Origin: Luxibacter massiliensis
GTDB taxonomy: Bacteria > Bacillota > Clostridia > Lachnospirales > Lachnospiraceae
DNA length: 24,000 nucleotides
Assembly (NCBI RefSeq): GCF_900604355.1
Contig: NZ_UWOE01000001.1
Location: 292,617 to 316,616, forward strand
Direction: 5' to 3'
The notes under the pieces are model-generated. The model did not search any database. It had not been told where the DNA came from and saw only the letters and a program-made list of their open reading frames with translations. The position numbers and the translations under genes are program-made. Shown here piece by piece: positions 10,356 through 24,000 of this stretch. The first letter of the stretch is position 1. Each line of letters starts with the position of its first letter.

Positions 10356-11275
10356 ACCTGAAACAGTTAGAGGCATTTGTATCAGTAGCCGAGGAGGGAA
10401 GCTTTTCAAAAGCGGCAAAGGCCTTGTTCTTGACGCAGCCAACTGTGAGCGCGCACATTTCTTCTTTGGAGCAGGAATTAAATGTCCGCCTGTTTGTGAG
10501 AAATACGAAAGAGGTGAATTTATCTGACAGCGGCAGGATATTGTATGAGTACGCAAAACAGATGGTTGTTCTGGAGAAAAAGATAGAGGCGGCGTTTGAT
10601 GGGACGAGAAAAGAGGAAGGGCACAGCATCAGGATTGCCGCTTCAACTGTTCCTGCCCAGTATCTGCTGCCGTCTATACTCACAGCTTTTAGCAGGAAGT
10701 ATCCCAGGGAGCAGCTGAAGATTACAGAGACAGATAGTGCGGGAGTCGTGGAACAGATTGTAAACCACAATGCAGATATAGGTTTTACAGGCACTGTCCT
10801 GGAGAAAAAGCATTGCTGCTATATTCCTTTTTACAGAGATGAGCTAATTGTAATAACCCCCAATACAGAAAAATTCAGATTTCTTAAGGAGAAAGACGGG
10901 ATAAATACTGAGGACAGATCATGGATTCAGAATGAACCCGTTATTATGCGTGAGGAAGGATCTGGGACGCGCAAGGAGGCGGAGAGACTTTTGAAAAGTG
11001 TTGGGATAGCGGTGAGGGATCTGAACATTGTGGCGACTATAGAGAACCAGGAGACGATTAAGCGGCTGGTGGGCAGTGGGACTGGCATTTCTATTATTTC
11101 CCGGCTGGCGGCTGAAGAAGAAATAGAGGAAGAAAAGGTGCTCAGCTTTCCCCTGGGAGGAGAAGATGAAAGGAGGAATATCAATGTTATTTATAATAAA
11201 AACCTCCAGCTTACAGCTACAGGAGAAAGTTTTCTGCGTATGGTCAGGAAGGTCTATCCAGAGAATGCTGTCTGA
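10352..11275 (+). CDS. LysR family transcriptional regulator, coupled to selB
   Basis: N-terminal LysR HTH (MNLKQLEAFVSVAEEGSFSKAAKALFLTQPTVSAHISSLE) plus a substrate-binding domain. Its ATG overlaps the selB stop (ATGA at 10352-10355). Confidence 0.85.
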   Translation: MNLKQLEAFVSVAEEGSFSKAAKALFLTQPTVSAHISSLEQELNVRLFVRNTKEVNLSDSGRILYEYAKQMVVLEKKIEAAFDGTRKEEGHSIRIAASTVPAQYLLPSILTAFSRKYPREQLKITETDSAGVVEQIVNHNADIGFTGTVLEKKHCCYIPFYRDELIVITPNTEKFRFLKEKDGINTEDRSWIQNEPVIMREEGSGTRKEAERLLKSVGIAVRDLNIVATIENQETIKRLVGSGTGISIISRLAAEEEIEEEKVLSFPLGGEDERRNINVIYNKNLQLTATGESFLRMVRKVYPENAV

Positions 11276-11339
11276 GGCCGAGATATTGCTGAAGTCTGAG
11301 TAGGATAAAATTTAAAGGCACACGGCTGTACAGATTTCT

Positions 11340-11590
11340 ATACCCAAAGGGCACCCCATAAAGCAGGCCCCCAAAGGGCGGGCGGACTGTGTCCGACAAG
11401 GCATACCCAAAGGGCACCCCATAAAGCAGGCCCTCAAAGGGCGGGCGGACTGTGTCCGACAAGGTATACCCAAAGGGCACCCCATAAAGCAGGCCCCCAA
11501 AGGGCGGGCGGACTGTGTCCGACAAGGTATACCCAAAGGGCACCCCATAAAGCAGGGCTCAAGGGGCGGACGGACTGTGTCCGACAAGGT
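11340..11590. repeat. Tandem array 1: four head-to-tail copies of a 63-bp GC-rich unit
   Basis: Units are 11340-11402, 11403-11465, 11466-11528 and 11529-11590 (62 bp). Consensus is ATACCCAAAGGGCACCCCATAAAGCAGGCCCCCAAAGGGCGGGCGGACTGTGTCCGACAAGGT. Copies 1-3 differ by 1-2 nt. There are no unique spacers. Confidence 0.95.
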
Positions 11591-11618
11591 ATATCTTTTG
11601 GGGCATGGATGTAATAAA

Positions 11619-11647
11619 TTGGCTGTAGGCCTTTAGCAGGGTATATA
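11619..11647 (+). promoter_or_regulatory. Candidate sigma-A promoter for the desulfurase-yedE operon
   Basis: TTGGCT (11619-11624), 17 nt spacer, TATATA (11642-11647). It starts 28 nt after the end of repeat array 1. Confidence 0.35.
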
Positions 11648-11745
11648 TAGGGGATATCTATATATACTCTTTATTTATGTTGGTTTTCAATTAGACTCTG
11701 CCTGTGGCGGAGAGTATACTAAAAATGTACATGGGGGATAAAGAT

Positions 11746-12882
11746 ATGATTTATATGGATAATGCAGCAACAACAATGCAGAAGCCAAGGGAAGTGTCAG
11801 AGGCGGTGGTTCAGGCCCTGAACTCTATCGGAAATGCAGGCCGTGGGGCGACGGAAGCAGCTTTAAGTGCATCCAGGGTTATTTACGAGACGAGAGAGAG
11901 GCTTGGCCGCTTTTTTCATGCAGAGAATCCCAGGCGTATTGTGTTTACTGCAAATTCAACAGAAAGTTTGAATATCGCCATAAAAGGTGTTTTAAATCCA
12001 AATGACCATGTAGTTACTACAGTGCTGGAACATAATTCAGTACTGCGCCCATTGTACGAGTGCCAGGAGCATGGGACAAAGCTGACTATTGTGGACTGTG
12101 ATGAAAAAGGGCGCATTTCTTGTGAAATGCTTGAGGATGCTATTAGGGATGATACAAAAGCTGTGGTGTGTACTCATGGTTCTAATCTGACTGGCAATAT
12201 GACTGATATAGAAGAAATCGGGAGGATTGCAAAGAGGCATGGTGTGTTATTCATAGTAGACGCATCCCAGACAGCGGGGGTATTTCCTATAGATGTACAG
12301 AAGATGGGGATTGACATCCTTTGCTTTACTGGGCATAAAAGTTTGCTGGGCCCCCAAGGAACGGGAGGGATGTATGTGAAGGAGGGAGTGGATGTACGCC
12401 CTCTTTTAAGCGGAGGCAGCGGAGTAGATACATATAACACACATCATCCGTCAGATATGCCTACAGCTTTGGAGGCAGGGACTCTGAACGGCCATGGGAT
12501 AGCCGGGTTGGGAGCTGCACTTCTGTATCTGGAGCAGACGGGCATCGACAGTATCAGAGCCACGGAGCTGAGTCTGATGAGGCGCTTTTATGAAGGGATT
12601 TCTGCGGTACCTGGCGTAGAAGTCTATGGGGACTTCGGGACAGATATGAGATGTCCCATTGTTTCCTTTAACATCAGAGATTATGATTCTTCAGAAGTGA
12701 GTGACGAATTATTTGTAACCTACGGCATAGCAACCAGGCCTGGCGCCCACTGTGCGCCCTTAATGCACCAGGCGCTGGGGACCGAGGGACAGGGAGCCGT
12801 GAGGTTCAGCTTTTCTCACTATAATACGGAAGAGGAGATTGATTTCGCAATTCAGGCAATTAGAGAATTGGCAGAAGAGTAG
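11746..12882 (+). CDS. Class V aminotransferase-fold cysteine desulfurase / selenocysteine lyase-like protein
   Basis: PLP lysine motif FTGHKSLLGPQG and the active-site loop RPGAHCAP (NifS/CsdB-type Cys). I prefer ATG 11746 (MIYMDNAATT) after GGGGGA. The track start at 11704 is a GTG. Confidence 0.8.
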   Translation: MIYMDNAATTMQKPREVSEAVVQALNSIGNAGRGATEAALSASRVIYETRERLGRFFHAENPRRIVFTANSTESLNIAIKGVLNPNDHVVTTVLEHNSVLRPLYECQEHGTKLTIVDCDEKGRISCEMLEDAIRDDTKAVVCTHGSNLTGNMTDIEEIGRIAKRHGVLFIVDASQTAGVFPIDVQKMGIDILCFTGHKSLLGPQGTGGMYVKEGVDVRPLLSGGSGVDTYNTHHPSDMPTALEAGTLNGHGIAGLGAALLYLEQTGIDSIRATELSLMRRFYEGISAVPGVEVYGDFGTDMRCPIVSFNIRDYDSSEVSDELFVTYGIATRPGAHCAPLMHQALGTEGQGAVRFSFSHYNTEEEIDFAIQAIRELAEE

Positions 12883-12894
12883 GAGGGAAATCAA

Positions 12895-13992
12895 ATGAAT
12901 TTATCGGATTCAAAAGGAAAACTGGCCATTGCCGGTGTAATTTGCGGTCTTGTTGCTGTGTGCCTGGCTATTTTTGGGAACCCGGCAAACATGGCATTTT
13001 GTATTGCGTGTTTTATCCGTGACACGGCGGGCGCCCTGGGGATGCATCAGGCGGAGGCGGTGCAGTACGCAAGGCCTGAGATCATTGGATTAGTGCTGGG
13101 GGCATTTCTTATTTCAGTAGCTACAAAAGAGTACCGCTCCACCGCAGGTTCATCTCCTATGATACGGTTTGTGCTGGGGATGATTATTATGATAGGATCA
13201 CTCGTATTCTTAGGGTGTCCACTGCGTATGATTATAAGGATGTCAGCCGGTGACCTTAATGCATGGGTAGCGCTGATTGGGTTTATTTTAGGGATTGCAA
13301 CAGGCGTGTTTGCATTAAAGAAAGGGTTCAGCCTTGGCCGTGCACATGTCACAGGTAAAATGAGCGGGGGTGTGCTTTCGGTTCTTATGCTGGCAATTCT
13401 GGTGCTTGCACTGGCAACATCACTTTTAAAAGCAAGCGAGTCTGGCCCGGGAAGTATGCATGCGCCTTTGATCTTGTCATTAGTAGGCGGATTGATTTTT
13501 GGGGCTATGGCTCAAAAGTCCAGGATGTGTTTTGCCGGAGGGATCCGGGATGTCATCCTTATGAAGAATTTTGACTTACTGACAGTTATCGGGGGAATAT
13601 TTGTAGTAATGCTTATATTTAACATTGCTACCGGAAGATTCATACTGGGATTTGATACACCGGGAATCATTGCACACTCTGAACATTTGTGGAACATTCT
13701 TGGTATGTATACTGTAGGGTTTGCTGCAGTTCTTGCAGGAGGATGCCCTCTCAGGCAGCTGATACTTGCAGGGCAGGGTTCCTCTGATTCAGCCGTGACG
13801 GTAGTGGGAATGTTTATTGGGGCAGCAATCTGCCATAACTTCGGCCTAGCAGCCAGCGGTACAGCCTTAAATGCAGAGACAAACGAGGTAGTTGCAGGGG
13901 CAGTGCCTTTGTATGGAAAGATTGCAGTAATAATTTGTATAATAGTATGTTTTATTATTGCTTTCACCAATAAGAGGGAGCAGGCTAAATAG
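12895..13992 (+). CDS. yedE: YedE/YeeE family membrane protein (putative selenium/sulfur transporter)
   Basis: Multi-TM protein with the paired Cys-containing motifs of the YeeE/YedE family (FCIACFIRD, MCFAGGIRD, GGCPLRQLILAG). GGAGGG lies 7 nt upstream of the ATG. Confidence 0.8.
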   Translation: MNLSDSKGKLAIAGVICGLVAVCLAIFGNPANMAFCIACFIRDTAGALGMHQAEAVQYARPEIIGLVLGAFLISVATKEYRSTAGSSPMIRFVLGMIIMIGSLVFLGCPLRMIIRMSAGDLNAWVALIGFILGIATGVFALKKGFSLGRAHVTGKMSGGVLSVLMLAILVLALATSLLKASESGPGSMHAPLILSLVGGLIFGAMAQKSRMCFAGGIRDVILMKNFDLLTVIGGIFVVMLIFNIATGRFILGFDTPGIIAHSEHLWNILGMYTVGFAAVLAGGCPLRQLILAGQGSSDSAVTVVGMFIGAAICHNFGLAASGTALNAETNEVVAGAVPLYGKIAVIICIIVCFIIAFTNKREQAK

Positions 13993-14028
13993 AAGAGAAG
14001 TTGTTAAAAAGGTGACAATTAAGCCTAA

Positions 14029-14064
14029 AGGGGTCTGTCCCTTTTGCAAAAGGGACAGACCCCT
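14029..14064. repeat. Perfect 36-nt palindrome within the operon (between yedE and the tusA-like gene)
   Basis: AGGGGTCTGTCCCTTTTGCAAAAGGGACAGACCCCT. Its 20-nt core GTCCCTTTTGCAAAAGGGAC (14037-14056) recurs at 22053-22072. No clean U-tract follows. Confidence 0.9.
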
Positions 14065-14134
14065 TCGGGGTTCATCAGAAAAATAGTTGAATTATAAGTG
14101 ATTTAGTAGTATTCTGAGAAAGAAGGTTAATATT

Positions 14135-14338
14135 ATGAAAGAAGTAGATGCAAGAGGTCTGTCCTGTCCAGAACCTTTGATGATGACAGCGGAGGCTATG
14201 AAAGAGACATCGGGGCCAGTGAAGGTCCTGGTTACAGAGCCGCACCAGAAAATGAACGTGGAAAAATTTGCAAGAGAGCATGGGAGAAAAGCCGCGTCAA
14301 CAGAGACAGAAGATGGCTTCGCAGTAACAATCGAGTAG
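14135..14338 (+). CDS. TusA/SirA-like sulfur (selenium) carrier protein
   Basis: 67 aa with the DARGLSCPEPLMMT (CPxP) motif that defines the TusA/SirA fold. Confidence 0.75.
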   Translation: MKEVDARGLSCPEPLMMTAEAMKETSGPVKVLVTEPHQKMNVEKFAREHGRKAASTETEDGFAVTIE

Positions 14339-14339
14339 A

Positions 14340-14576
14340 ATGAGAAAAAAAGAATTAAAACTGGTAGTCACATTTCACACAACAGCAGATGCTATGGCTA
14401 TGGAAAGTGCATGTAAAGGGATGAAAATCCCTGGGAGGCTGATTCCCGTGCCTCGCAGCCTGTCCGCCGGGTGCGGACTTTCCTGGTGTGCACAGCTTGA
14501 AGATAAATCTGTGCTTGAGGAAATGATGGAAGCAACTGCTATTGAATACGAAGCCATACAGGAATGTATGGTATAA
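14340..14576 (+). CDS. DUF3343-like small protein (putative Se/S carrier)
   Basis: 78 aa. The pattern FHTTADAMAME..CKG..IPGRLIPVPRSLSAGCGLSW matches my recollection of DUF3343. The start lies 1 nt after the upstream stop (TAGAATG). Confidence 0.6.
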   Translation: MRKKELKLVVTFHTTADAMAMESACKGMKIPGRLIPVPRSLSAGCGLSWCAQLEDKSVLEEMMEATAIEYEAIQECMV

Positions 14577-14590
14577 AAGGCCTTAAAAAG

Positions 14591-14662
14591 AGCCGGCACA
14601 GTAGACGCTGTTGCCATCACTATGTTTAGAGATGGCAGCAGATTCTCATGTGTCGGCTTTTT
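14591..14662. terminator. Bidirectional intrinsic terminator between convergent operons
   Basis: The outer stem AGCCGGCACA (14591-14600) pairs with TGTGTCGGCT (14649-14658) and encloses the inner stem CTGTTGCCATC/GATGGCAGCAG. It is flanked by AAAAAG on the left and TTTTTG on the right. Confidence 0.6.
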
Positions 14663-14715
14663 GAGTATACTTAAGGGCCGTGCTAATCAAACAGCCTTTT
14701 CTGGAAATAAAAGGG

Positions 14716-15321
14716 TCATGCTTTGCCTTTTTGTCCTATACCCTGTTTAAACCCATCCAGCACATGTGGCAGCAGCCTGTCGCTGTATGCGGAAAGTGAG
14801 TAATTGCCTCCGCAGAGTGCCCAGTCATATAGAAGTCCTCTCTCATACATAGTATATATTTTAATCAAGTCCTCTGAGGCTGAAGTATGGCTAAATTCGC
14901 CAGAGTGTATACCTTCTGTTATAATTTCGGATATTAGTTGGAAATAATAGCGGTCATCGTCCAGCAGCGAGCGGTTGTCCCGGGTAACCAGCTGTGAGGA
15001 GTATAAGGAGGCCAGCAAATTTAAATCAATACTGGTCTCAATCATATAAAACAGCTCGTGGTTGAGGAGCAGTAGTTTGTCTCTGGAAGAAAGGGTTTTA
15101 TCAAGGGATGCATTTATTTCTTCGTATTTTTGGTCAAAAAGATCAGACAATGTGGAAAGCAGAGCATCCTTTCCCTTGAAGTAGTGGTAAAAGGTTCCTT
15201 TTGATGTTTTGGAAAGTTTGATAATATCCTCTACAGTCGTATCATCGTATCCATTTTTGTAAAATAAATTCCAGGCGGCTTTTACGATTCTGCTTTTTGT
15301 ACTTTGTTTTTTACGGGGCAT
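14716..15321 (-). CDS. TetR/AcrR family transcriptional regulator
   Basis: N-terminal TetR HTH (RIVKAAWNLFYKNGYDDTTVEDIIKLSKTSKGTFYHYFKGKDAL). SD AAGGAGAG lies upstream. Confidence 0.85.
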   Translation of the reverse strand: MPRKKQSTKSRIVKAAWNLFYKNGYDDTTVEDIIKLSKTSKGTFYHYFKGKDALLSTLSDLFDQKYEEINASLDKTLSSRDKLLLLNHELFYMIETSIDLNLLASLYSSQLVTRDNRSLLDDDRYYFQLISEIITEGIHSGEFSHTSASEDLIKIYTMYERGLLYDWALCGGNYSLSAYSDRLLPHVLDGFKQGIGQKGKA

Positions 15322-15403
15322 AATAATCTCACTCTCCTTATAAAATTTAGATATTCTTTACATAGTAAGTATAACACATCTAAAGGCATTCTTTAACCCT
15401 TGT

Positions 15404-15427
15404 CACTATGAGCGGGAAAACATAGTG
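15404..15427. promoter_or_regulatory. Inverted repeat upstream of tetR, candidate operator
   Basis: CACTATG (15404-15410), 10 nt spacer, CATAGTG (15421-15427). A third half-site, CATAGTA, lies at 15361-15367. All are in the tetR 5' region. Confidence 0.25.
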
Positions 15428-15540
15428 CAATAAAATTCTAAGTTACCGATGTGATAAATATGGAAAAAGAGCTGTTACAAAACGAATTTCAGACAAAATA
15501 ATAGTATTGAAAGAAGACTTAGACTATCTCTTGCCGGATA

Positions 15541-15569
15541 TTAACATTTTGCAACAGCTCCCCTATAAT
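15541..15569 (+). promoter_or_regulatory. Candidate sigma-A promoter firing into repeat array 2
   Basis: TTAACA (15541-15546), 17 nt spacer, TATAAT (15564-15569). The predicted start near 15576 is a few nt before the first repeat unit. Confidence 0.35.
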
Positions 15570-15582
15570 TAAACTTCCACAC

Positions 15583-15876
15583 CTAAAGGACCCCCAAGGG
15601 GCGGGCGGACTTCGTCCGACAAGGTATACCCAAAAGGCACCCCATAAGGCAGGCCCCAAGGGGCGGGCGGACTTCGTACGACGAGGTATACCCAAAGGGC
15701 ACCCCATAAAACAGGCCCCCAAGGGGCAGGCGGACTTCGTCCGACAAGGTATACCCAAAGGGCACCCCATAAGGCAGGCCCCCAAGGGGCGGGCGGACTT
15801 CGTCCGACAAGGTATACCCAAAGGGCACCCCATGAAACAGGCCCCAAAGGGGCGGGCGGACTTCGTCCGACAAGGT
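15583..15876. repeat. Tandem array 2: about 4.7 copies of the same 63-bp unit, in the same orientation as array 1
   Basis: A partial unit at 15583-15625 is followed by 15626-15687 (62 bp), 15688-15750, 15751-15813 and 15814-15876. Consensus is ATACCCAAAGGGCACCCCATAAGGCAGGCCCCCAAGGGGCGGGCGGACTTCGTCCGACAAGGT, about 4 differences per unit from array 1. Confidence 0.95.
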
Positions 15877-15940
15877 ATATTTATTGAACTGGTAATTTTC
15901 AATAAGATATTAGTTTCAAAATTGTATTGGCCTGCAGGCT

Positions 15941-16978
15941 TTACTCTCCGCGGGATACTTTAAAACCATATTTGAGAGGGTCATCAGGGTCGATTACATA
16001 AGTGGACTCTCCTGTGACATAAGCGCTTCCCGTAATTTGAGGAATCACCGCGTGAAACGCCCCAACTGTTGTCTCCTCTTTTATGACTCCTTTAAATTGA
16101 GAACCGATAAAACTTTCATATACAAATGGTTCTCCAATTTTAATCTCTCCCCGTGAGTACAATGTGGCAAGTTTTGCGCTTGTGCCTGTTCCACAGGGGG
16201 ACCGGTCAGCCATATAATCTCCGAAAATTACTACGTTTCGATAATCACATCCTTCTGTCCCTGTGTGGCAGTACAATTCTGCCAGATCTACAGTGGTAAT
16301 ATCCAGTTCGGGATGCTTAATCTCCACTTCCCTATTTACTTGACGTACCAGCTTCATCCCAAAGTCAGTTAGTTTGGGAATGGATTCCTTGTCAACTGTC
16401 CAACCAAGTTGTTCGATATCCACCAGTGCAAAAAAACTTCCCCCGAATGCGATGTCATACTGAACTGATTTTCCGTCGATTACTGTAGTCAGGTTCTCTT
16501 TATATAGAAATGCCGGTACATTGGTGAGGGTGACATTAAGAACTTTATTATTCTTAACTTCTGCCTTTACACGAATAAGTCCGGCTGGAGCGTCCAATAC
16601 TACTTCTGTGTAAGGCTCTTTGGCAGGAACTAAACCTGCCTCAATTAAGGCAGTTGTAGTGCCGATAGTACCGTGGCCGCACATATTAAGATATTCGCCG
16701 GTATCCATGAATATAACACCAAAGTCGGCCTCAGGATTTACTGGCTCTGTGACCAGGGCGCCAAACATGTCGTGGTGCCCTCTGGGTTCAAACATAAGAG
16801 CCTGGCGGTACTTATCAAAATTTTTTGCCAAATACTGCTTGCGCTCCATCATGGTATTTCCTTTCAATTCTGGAAAACCAGACATAATAATACGGGTAAA
16901 TTCCCCCACGGTATGAGTATCGATAGCTTTGAAAGATGCTTCAAATGCGTCCAGGTTGATTTTGGGATTGTAATTCAT
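15941..16978 (-). CDS. prdF: Proline racemase family protein (proline racemase or 4-hydroxyproline epimerase)
   Basis: Both catalytic Cys motifs are present (NMCGHGTIG and DRSPCGTGTSA). AGGAGGAAGG lies upstream. It is adjacent to the prd operon, so proline racemase is favoured. Substrate specificity cannot be decided by eye. Confidence 0.75.
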   Translation of the reverse strand: MNYNPKINLDAFEASFKAIDTHTVGEFTRIIMSGFPELKGNTMMERKQYLAKNFDKYRQALMFEPRGHHDMFGALVTEPVNPEADFGVIFMDTGEYLNMCGHGTIGTTTALIEAGLVPAKEPYTEVVLDAPAGLIRVKAEVKNNKVLNVTLTNVPAFLYKENLTTVIDGKSVQYDIAFGGSFFALVDIEQLGWTVDKESIPKLTDFGMKLVRQVNREVEIKHPELDITTVDLAELYCHTGTEGCDYRNVVIFGDYMADRSPCGTGTSAKLATLYSRGEIKIGEPFVYESFIGSQFKGVIKEETTVGAFHAVIPQITGSAYVTGESTYVIDPDDPLKYGFKVSRGE

Positions 16979-17319: not shown

Positions 17320-17417
17320 GGGGGTAGAAAGGTAACTGGTGTGCCTCCTGGTCTTCAAAACCAGTGTTGGGCGTTTGTAGCGTCCTGGGTGGGTTCGATT
17401 CCCACATACCTCCGCCA
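17320..17417 (+). tRNA. selC: tRNA-Sec (anticodon UCA)
   Basis: 98 nt. The acceptor GGGGGTA pairs with TACCTCC, followed by discriminator G and an encoded CCA. The D stem is extended (AGGTA/TGCCT). The anticodon arm is CTGGT-CTTCAAA-ACCAG with TCA at 17355-17357. The variable arm is long (GGGCG-TTTGTAG-CGTCC). The T arm is GTGGG-TTCGATT-CCCAC. The layout parallels E. coli selC. Confidence 0.85.
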
Positions 17418-23974: not shown

Positions 23975-24000
23975 TTATTGGACTATTAATGTCTAATAAG

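Follow-up and report, generated by a model that had tools for sequence, protein, structure and literature searches.

A dispersed family of 63-bp three-hairpin repeats in Luxibacter massiliensis, viewed from a tandem array beside a proline racemase gene

Introduction

What is a 63-bp sequence, repeated head to tail between the genes for a proline racemase and a TetR-family regulator, doing in the genome of Luxibacter massiliensis? Does it serve the genes beside it, or does it belong to something wider? The species is a member of the Lachnospiraceae, dominant gut commensals whose small non-coding repeats are, to our knowledge, essentially uncatalogued. The genome comprises 4.14 Mb at 44.5% GC in three contigs, and the stretch of DNA analyzed here (the window, 24,000 nucleotides) is C3:292617-316616. 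Two arrays of the repeat lie in the window, and an initial annotation had read in them a homogenization within arrays combined with constraint on hairpin stems.

The two arrays

Array 2 (15583-15879, plus strand) consists of 4.6 direct copies of the 63-bp unit, as determined with Tandem Repeats Finder, nhmmer and unit-by-unit reading. It starts inside a unit at about 15583, so that a partial first unit (15583-15624, plus strand) precedes four complete plus-strand units of 62-63 bp (15625-15686, 15687-15749, 15750-15812 and 15813-15875), and it ends on the TATA of a further unit. Array 1 (11339-11593, plus strand) has four units by the same unit-by-unit reading. Tandem Repeats Finder gives 15591-15879 (period 63, 4.6 copies, 92% matches) for array 2 and 11339-11593 (period 63, 4.1 copies, 95% matches) for array 1. 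These figures agree with the initial count of about 4.7 copies in the orientation of array 1, both arrays being on one strand. The units of array 2 abut directly, with no unique spacers of the CRISPR type, and score 83 bits with the covariance model. For a 19-mer of the unit there are 114 genomic matches and for the same pattern read backwards 0, which excludes chance as the origin of the repeat.

Between the two arrays the mean unit-to-unit difference is 10%, and the consensuses differ at 3-5 positions, where about 4 per unit had been claimed. The loop of the third hairpin is TGT in all four units of array 1 and TTC in every unit of array 2, just as first described. The CGGAC/GTCCG stem around it had been called unchanged; this is right for both arrays at large and wrong for the edge unit 15625-15686, in which GTACG breaks a pair and AAAAGGC appears in the first hairpin, both changes being stem-breaking. 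The last unit of array 1 is likewise degenerate. Most array-1 units have GCCC-CCAAA-GGGC as their middle hairpin, which leaves a loop of 5 nt; its counterpart in array 2 is GCCCC-CAA-GGGGC, whose loop is 3 nt. The AAGGGG change that was said to lengthen a stem to GCCCC/GGGGC is indeed seen there, in the middle hairpin of the unit.

A genome-wide family

Searches with blastn and nhmmer (E < 0.001) find 122 units at 63 loci, with both strands of C3 and of C2 represented. One to seven units make up an array, seven being found at C3:3019357-3019790, and nhmmer gives periods of 61-64 bp. The units are GC-rich relative to the genome. Each is 61-64 bp long, starts with TATACC, ends with AAGG and contains three GC-rich hairpins, all of them short: H1, ATRCCC-AAA-GGGYAY; H2, GYCC(C)-loop-(G)GGRC; and H3, YGGAC-NNN-GTCCR. 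Successive units meet in a palindromic junction, GGTATACC. Variant units with a different third hairpin occur at C3:1656153 and C3:3449771, and a 69-bp variant at C3:479051.

By a crude gene call the loci are intergenic. The genes on either side run in the direction of the unit at 17 of them, against it at 16, away from each other (divergent) at 17 and towards each other (convergent) at 13, which does not differ from the expectation from intergenic length over the 63 loci (p 0.28). Nor was a replication-strand bias found, taking the origin near 0 and the terminus near 1.68 Mb of C3. Since the arrays belong to a dispersed family of about 60 loci, the site of array 2 beside prdF and tetR is without special meaning. 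The 5' flanks of the arrays are mutually unrelated, and only TAT(A) recurs on the 3' side: all units begin with TATA, and TAT(A) follows 34 of the 48 complete array 3' ends, so each array is bracketed by TAT(A).

These data bear on a reading of the array as a row of phased binding sites for the regulator of a neighboring gene (TetR, LysR or a prd regulator), which would meet the palindrome GGTATACC once every six helical turns. The junction is the best conserved part of the unit, 63 bp is close to six turns as the 32 bp of a second module (below) is to three, and arrays 1 and 2 both adjoin regulator genes, as identified with Pfam. However, like units lie at about 60 unrelated loci beside unrelated genes, and also in other genera; periods vary from 61 to 64 bp; the unit number ranges from 1 to 4 between strains; and covariation, treated below, indicates intrastrand pairing rather than a fixed sequence. 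We give this reading hardly any credence.

The second module, module B, adjoins array 2 as an AT-rich hairpin at 15876-15912 (plus strand), with a core of TTATTGAAC-7 nt-TTCAATAA at 15881-15905. It has a TATA...AAG junction in common with the 63-bp units and folds with -6.3 kcal/mol (z -1.9). In general form it is a near-perfect 32-bp palindrome, TATAC-TTATTGAAC-loop-GTTCAATAAGG, with the AAGG/TATAC junction of the 63-bp unit. A loose pattern finds 127 copies in the genome. Module B adjoins 20 of the 63 arrays, on either side and in either orientation, and it also stands alone in tandem arrays with a 32-bp period (C3:539402-539522, C3:1390437-1390589, C3:1999006-1999126 and C3:2466642-2466762). 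Some copies in these tandem arrays carry paired stem changes, TTATTGGAC...GTCCAATAA. A pattern scan finds a further module-B-like hairpin, standing alone, where the window ends (23975-23999, plus strand; C3:316591-316615).

Two complex loci on C2 are worth recording. At C2:169299-171821 (L137) two inverted 3-unit arrays bracket a 2.2-kb segment with genes for an N-acetylmuramoyl-L-alanine amidase and a HAD hydrolase. After this pair follows a 5-unit array, C2:172888-173192, in which unit variants alternate to make a two-unit higher-order repeat.

Hairpins and covariation

For the structural analysis 110 units from this genome and 44 from other genomes were aligned; alignment A1 has 89 distinct units. 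RNAalifold on a plain MAFFT alignment recovered the structure only in part, so the stems were defined by hand, as 15 pairs in H1-H3, and then tested. Standard pairs fill 87.4% of the cells in A1, compared with 82.6% in shuffles and 22-42% when the partners are slid. In 8 of the 15 stem pairs, over 97 cells of the 89 distinct units, changes are found on both sides, which is matched by none of 500 shuffles; the covariation score is 0.192 in A1 and 0.101 in shuffles. These compensatory double changes make selection on the stems real. The case for structure rests on covariation, since the folding energies of single units are unexceptional for their composition (z only -0.1 to -1.8).

The changes are readily seen by eye. 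The H2 stem occurs as GTCC/GGAC, GCCC/GGGC, GTTCC/GGAAC, ACCC/GGGT and TCCC/GGGA, and that of H3 as GGAC/GTCC, GCGC/GCGC, GCAC/GTGC and GGGC/GCCC, with a closing pair that is T-A in 37 units and C-G in 37. The third loop is free to vary and takes 11 different triplets. The claim that the stems are constrained, and the loop less so, is therefore borne out, now on units of this and other genomes together. Covariation in the aligned units shows stem-breaking changes to be removed or compensated, which is how the copies retain their hairpins.

The two strands are not equivalent. On the unit strand H1 has two near-constant A.C oppositions, which are G.U on the complementary strand. On that complementary strand 97.6% of the cells are paired (98.3% in H1, where 133 pairs are G.U), against 87.4% on the unit strand, and folding is more stable in 76 of 92 units. 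Whether or not the unit strand is the one transcribed as sense makes no difference to how frequent the A.C mismatches are.

Homogenization and strain alleles

Genome-wide, units differ by 4.1% within arrays and by 19.5% between arrays, and 65 of 79 units have their nearest relative among the units of their own array. Within-array homogenization, first suggested by the shared differences of arrays 1 and 2, is thereby confirmed across the genome. Arrays 1 and 2 themselves fall in a sub-family concentrated at C3:180-437 kb, and they are closest to one another and to the single unit at C3:437533.

Alleles of the two arrays were taken from contigs of other samples that encode an identical racemase or LysR protein, with flanks 99.3% identical. 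Copy number does vary between strains, array 1 having 1, 2 or 4 units and array 2 having 2.6 or 4.6, as read from alleles most of which (L117-L136) are short-read metagenome assemblies in which tandem copies may be collapsed or mis-resolved. Only the polymorphism of module B and the distinct sets of variants are safe, as a collapse of copies cannot create these. At array 2, L117 has 4.6 units, the four complete ones all of one 62-bp variant, and L118 and L119 have 2.6 units with variant combinations of their own. At array 1, five assemblies have one unit followed by module B and two have two units with module B; in the strain of the window there are four units, and the 32-bp module B is missing, precisely, from between GGTAT repeats. 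The loop is specific to the array in all alleles, being TGT at array 1, except for a TAT in one unit, and TTC at array 2.

Among these alleles the cores of H1 and H3 are invariant. Variable columns are fewer in stems than outside, 5 against 11, but the difference is not significant (p 0.09).

Two of the strain contigs have peculiarities of their own. In L128:588-2504 selB is split in two frames (186 and 448 residues) by a frameshift or an assembly error; it is intact, with 638 residues, in the other strains. The last ~47 bases of L119 (4502-4548, a contig end, at window positions 15322-15368 in the TetR start region) are unrelated to the window, through a rearrangement or a chimeric contig end.

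In our judgment array 2 probably arose by the local expansion, in tandem, of one member of a repeat family that is non-coding, modular and dispersed. Unit number may grow and shrink by replication slippage or by unequal recombination between the GGTATACC junctions; as these are identical, array change needs nothing more than slippage or unequal exchange. Local turnover of this kind would leave the units of one array alike and would keep the variants of its founder, which for array 2 are the TTC loop and the 5-bp GCCCC/GGGGC stem. For the 'concerted evolution' of the initial annotation the best reading is that units were duplicated and lost locally, starting from a founder unit specific to the locus, rather than exchanged between arrays.

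Neighboring genes and local transcription

Array 2 had been placed between the prdF stop and the region upstream of tetR, and it lies there. The proline racemase gene (prdF-like; PF05544, E 2.5e-116) is at 15941-16978 on the minus strand, and the array lies 65 bp past its stop. The gene for the TetR-family regulator, identified with Pfam, is at 14716-15321, also on the minus strand and downstream of the array in that direction, the array being 262 bp upstream of the gene.

At gathering thresholds only tRNA-Sec passes among Rfam families in the whole window; its gene (17320-17413; RF01852, 65.7 bits) is between the racemase gene and an RnfC-like prdC gene. Upstream of array 1 are selD, selA and selB. 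Arrays 1 and 2 (11339-15879) form direct repeats around genes for a desulfurase, a YedE-like protein, TusA, an Se/S carrier and TetR. This cassette is present in all strain contigs that span the region (L117, L118 and L130), with no deletion allele.

Open frames run through array 2 on the minus strand at 15519-15902, 15569-15847 and 15583-15873 (127, 92 and 96 codons), and a similar minus-strand frame runs through array 1 at 11244-11587. They arise because the 21-codon period is free of stops. Such frames are likely to end up mis-annotated as genes.

Read on the minus strand, in the sense of the racemase gene, the middle hairpin at 15841-15853 (GCCCC-UUU-GGGGC) is followed by a U-rich tail and resembles a terminator, as does a second one at 15715-15727. 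The signal is weak, as these two sites compare with 1.2 expected in shuffles. In the other direction a promoter-like TTAACA-17-TATAAT (15541-15569, plus strand, 11 of 12 matches) reads into array 2; it shows no sign of use in the mouse-gut metatranscriptome X7, in which no RNA-derived contig covers 15547-15623.

In X7 a racemase contig of depth 69 crosses module B, enters the first unit and reaches 15812; depth is 0 at 15547-15623 and 3-10 in the TetR region. The RNA data are assembler contigs that carry no strand and break inside the array, and X2 and X5 may include DNA carry-over; because contigs break in repeats and are strandless, the X7 pattern is only a hint. It is compatible with a place for array 2 in the 3' end of the racemase transcript. 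The array probably lies in the 3' untranslated end of that transcript, and may end or stabilize it as a local side effect.

Such effects could also be what the family is for. On this account the hairpins are RNA elements that benefit the host by ending transcription or by shielding upstream mRNA from 3' exonucleases, as some REP/BIME elements have been shown to do, and the stems are selected for that function. Because hairpins form on either strand, the orientation-free distribution is compatible with it. Two units of array 2 give, on the minus strand, a 5-bp GC hairpin and then a U-rich tail; the X7 racemase contig reaches into the array, with a coverage of 0 immediately past it; and the reverse strand pairs better (97.6% against 87.4%) and is the more stable in 76 of 92 units. 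Against this, 17 of the 63 loci are between divergent genes, where there is no 3' end to be served, and types of intergenic region are used as their length predicts. The A.C/G.U asymmetry is independent of the direction of flanking transcription, terminator-like sites are no commoner than in shuffles (2 against 1.2), and presence in only 11 of 151 genera argues against a needed host function. We consider the account unlikely.

Under the reading preferred here, that of a dispersed non-coding repeat, the hairpins would be needed for the propagation of the element itself, or as nucleic-acid structure in any transcript that crosses them. They would not be a sequence-specific site for the neighboring prd or selenium genes.

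Mobility and RAYT candidates

Two IS200-type genes are present in the genome, as are two single-copy RAYT-like genes, the latter at C3:3397392-3398171 and C3:2537911-2538678 with NF047646 scores of 72.6 and 82.3 bits, respectively (cut-off 80). The 63-bp units could then be REP sequences mobilized by one of these RAYTs, their hairpins serving as its single-stranded DNA substrates. In keeping with that idea, the mismatches within the consensus are strand-asymmetric, as in RAYT/IS200 substrates, and a repeat-bearing relative (G020) also has a RAYT homologue.

Yet each RAYT-like gene has repeats of its own on its flanks, and these differ from the 63-bp unit. Upstream of C3:3397392-3398171, at C3:3398172-3398571, is a ~120-bp repeat with at least 80 genomic copies and hairpins of the type GGTCAAATACCCCGATGC...GCATCGGGGTATTTGACC, one copy of which abuts a 63-bp array at C3:2692860. 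As it sits beside a single-copy RAYT-like gene, this repeat is a candidate to form a REP/RAYT pair with it. The second RAYT-like gene (C3:2537511-2539078 with its surroundings; 82.3 bits) has AATTTAGGACGTA...TACGTCCTAAATT hairpins on both sides, which have about 10 genomic copies. Neither a 63-bp unit nor module B adjoins either gene, and no unit is found within 2.5 kb. RAYT homologues were found in one (G020) of the five other repeat-bearing genomes and not in the remaining four, and several genomes without the repeat have them. Moreover, the units are direct tandem copies rather than inverted pairs, and replication-strand bias is absent. We rejected a RAYT as the mobilizer, since it is other repeats that accompany the RAYT-like genes and since co-occurrence of such genes with the 63-bp family is lacking; the idea is very improbable.

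Other candidates were considered. An autonomous element bounded by module-B-like arms was rejected, as only the housekeeping genes for the amidase and the HAD hydrolase are present between the two inverted arrays of C2, and in the genome neither a transposase between distant pairs of arms nor a longer element with the ends of the unit was found. GTATAC as a restriction site was also rejected, its observed/expected ratio of 1.06 showing no avoidance in the genome.

Something like a target duplication may mark the ends of the arrays: TAT(A) comes after 34 of 48 complete 3' ends, and strains either have or precisely lack module B between GGTAT repeats. For whole arrays no empty site was recovered. 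The inverted ends of the unit are only 6 bp long (TATACC/GGTATA). We infer the mobility of the 63-bp family from its distribution only, since no mobilizing enzyme or autonomous partner for it was found in the genome.

Taxonomic distribution

A strict 19-mer, searched among 41 relatives of different genera, occurs only in this genome and one other. An exact 23-mer, searched in species-representative genomes, finds 52 stretches, all from Lachnospiraceae or unclassified Clostridiales of gut samples. Its hosts include Faecalicatena contorta, Faecalicatena fissicatena, Dorea, Blautia, Diplocloster, Sporofaciens, Mediterraneibacter, Petralouisia, Frisingicoccus and Eisenbergiella, among others, and the same scan finds six units in tandem in Anaerostipes hominis. 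With the covariance model R1, applied to at most 35 candidates per genome, matches are found in 11 of 151 Lachnospiraceae genera and are multi-copy in 6. The family is thus multi-copy in at least five Lachnospiraceae genera besides this one. Module B was not found at the loci of the 63-bp family in other genera.

Such a patchy occurrence across genera would fit repeated loss or horizontal spread. The family may have spread both into intergenic DNA and between Lachnospiraceae lineages.

Comparison with known repeats

In Rfam the arrays match no family at either gathering or permissive thresholds, the best array hit being M23 with 14.4 bits against a threshold of 41.2 (E 6.9). A search of the literature on intergenic, REP and tandem hairpin repeats of Lachnospiraceae found no description of a 63-bp family. 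The family is apparently undescribed, and the best reading of it is as a BOX/REP-like non-autonomous repeat with VNTR behavior.

BOX elements of Streptococcus pneumoniae have the layout boxA-boxB(n)-boxC, the inner module being repeated in tandem with a copy number that differs from strain to strain (Croucher et al. 2011, PMC3049150). They are strongly folded, can create open frames, are patchily distributed among related taxa and are judged to be parasitic, with no dedicated host function (PMC3049150). BOX is the nearest analogue in behavior, a likeness of architecture and behavior and not one drawn from boxA, boxB and boxC sequences. Like BOX, the 63-bp family is a small, intergenic, interspersed and modular repeat, with one module in direct tandem arrays of strain-variable length, extensive predicted stem-loops, spurious open frames (127, 92 and 96 codons) and a patchy taxonomic distribution. 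Unlike BOX, it is found in a different phylum-level lineage, that of the Lachnospiraceae; its arrays start directly with a unit and have no conserved end modules on both sides; only about a third of them carry module B, which can be on either side and in either orientation; and each unit holds three hairpins of its own.

Some REP/BIME elements act on mRNA stability or on transcription attenuation (PMC3049150). With the REP, BIME and REPIN sequences of Enterobacteria and Pseudomonas the 63-bp family shares an extragenic position, GC-richness relative to the genome, hairpin stems kept by compensation, and tens to hundreds of copies clustered in arrays. It differs from them in that its units run head to tail on one strand rather than being alternately inverted, in that no GTAG-type head is seen in the unit, and in that it does not avoid divergent promoter regions. 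In contrast to REP/RAYT systems, its occurrence is not matched by that of RAYT genes, and the RAYT-like genes of the genome have other repeats beside them.

The MIRU-type VNTRs of mycobacteria are direct tandem repeats of 40-100 bp at tens of intergenic loci, vary between strains and are used in typing. MIRUs are oriented with their operons, and their short frames couple the flanking genes. The 63-bp family is likewise a set of dispersed intergenic tandem repeats with a strain-variable copy number, as seen in mostly short-read assemblies. It differs in the coexistence of 61, 62, 63 and 64 bp periods, random orientation, the lack of a coding phase and the conservation of hairpins.

There is also a likeness to MITEs, as the family is non-autonomous, small and tightly folding, with short inverted ends, TATACC...GGTATA. 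In 34 of 48 arrays TAT(A) flanks the two ends in a way that resembles a target duplication, and module B is a near-perfect 32-bp palindrome that is present or precisely absent between strains. Classical MITEs differ in being AT-rich, whereas the 63-bp unit is GC-rich; its inverted ends have only 6 bp, and no insertion sequence with ends matching the unit was found in the genome.

Conclusions

The arrays are no local feature of the prd or selenium genes and do not point to a regulatory device dedicated to that locus. The covariance model R1 allows such arrays to be annotated and removes the spurious minus-strand frames of 92-127 codons. The arrays also explain assembly breaks at these sites. 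Their strain-variable unit numbers are ready VNTR markers for the tracking of strains in mouse and human gut studies.

The compensatory changes mean that the hairpins are under selection, and this points to mobilization or to activity at the level of RNA. We think it improbable that the three-hairpin unit is a structured element with a conserved activity of its own, spreading horizontally between genera without an encoded transposase, either as the substrate of an unrecognized mobilization machinery of gut Lachnospiraceae or as a transcript-end or insulator module tunable by copy number. If that were true, array length would be a strain-variable dial on neighboring genes, such as that for proline racemase.
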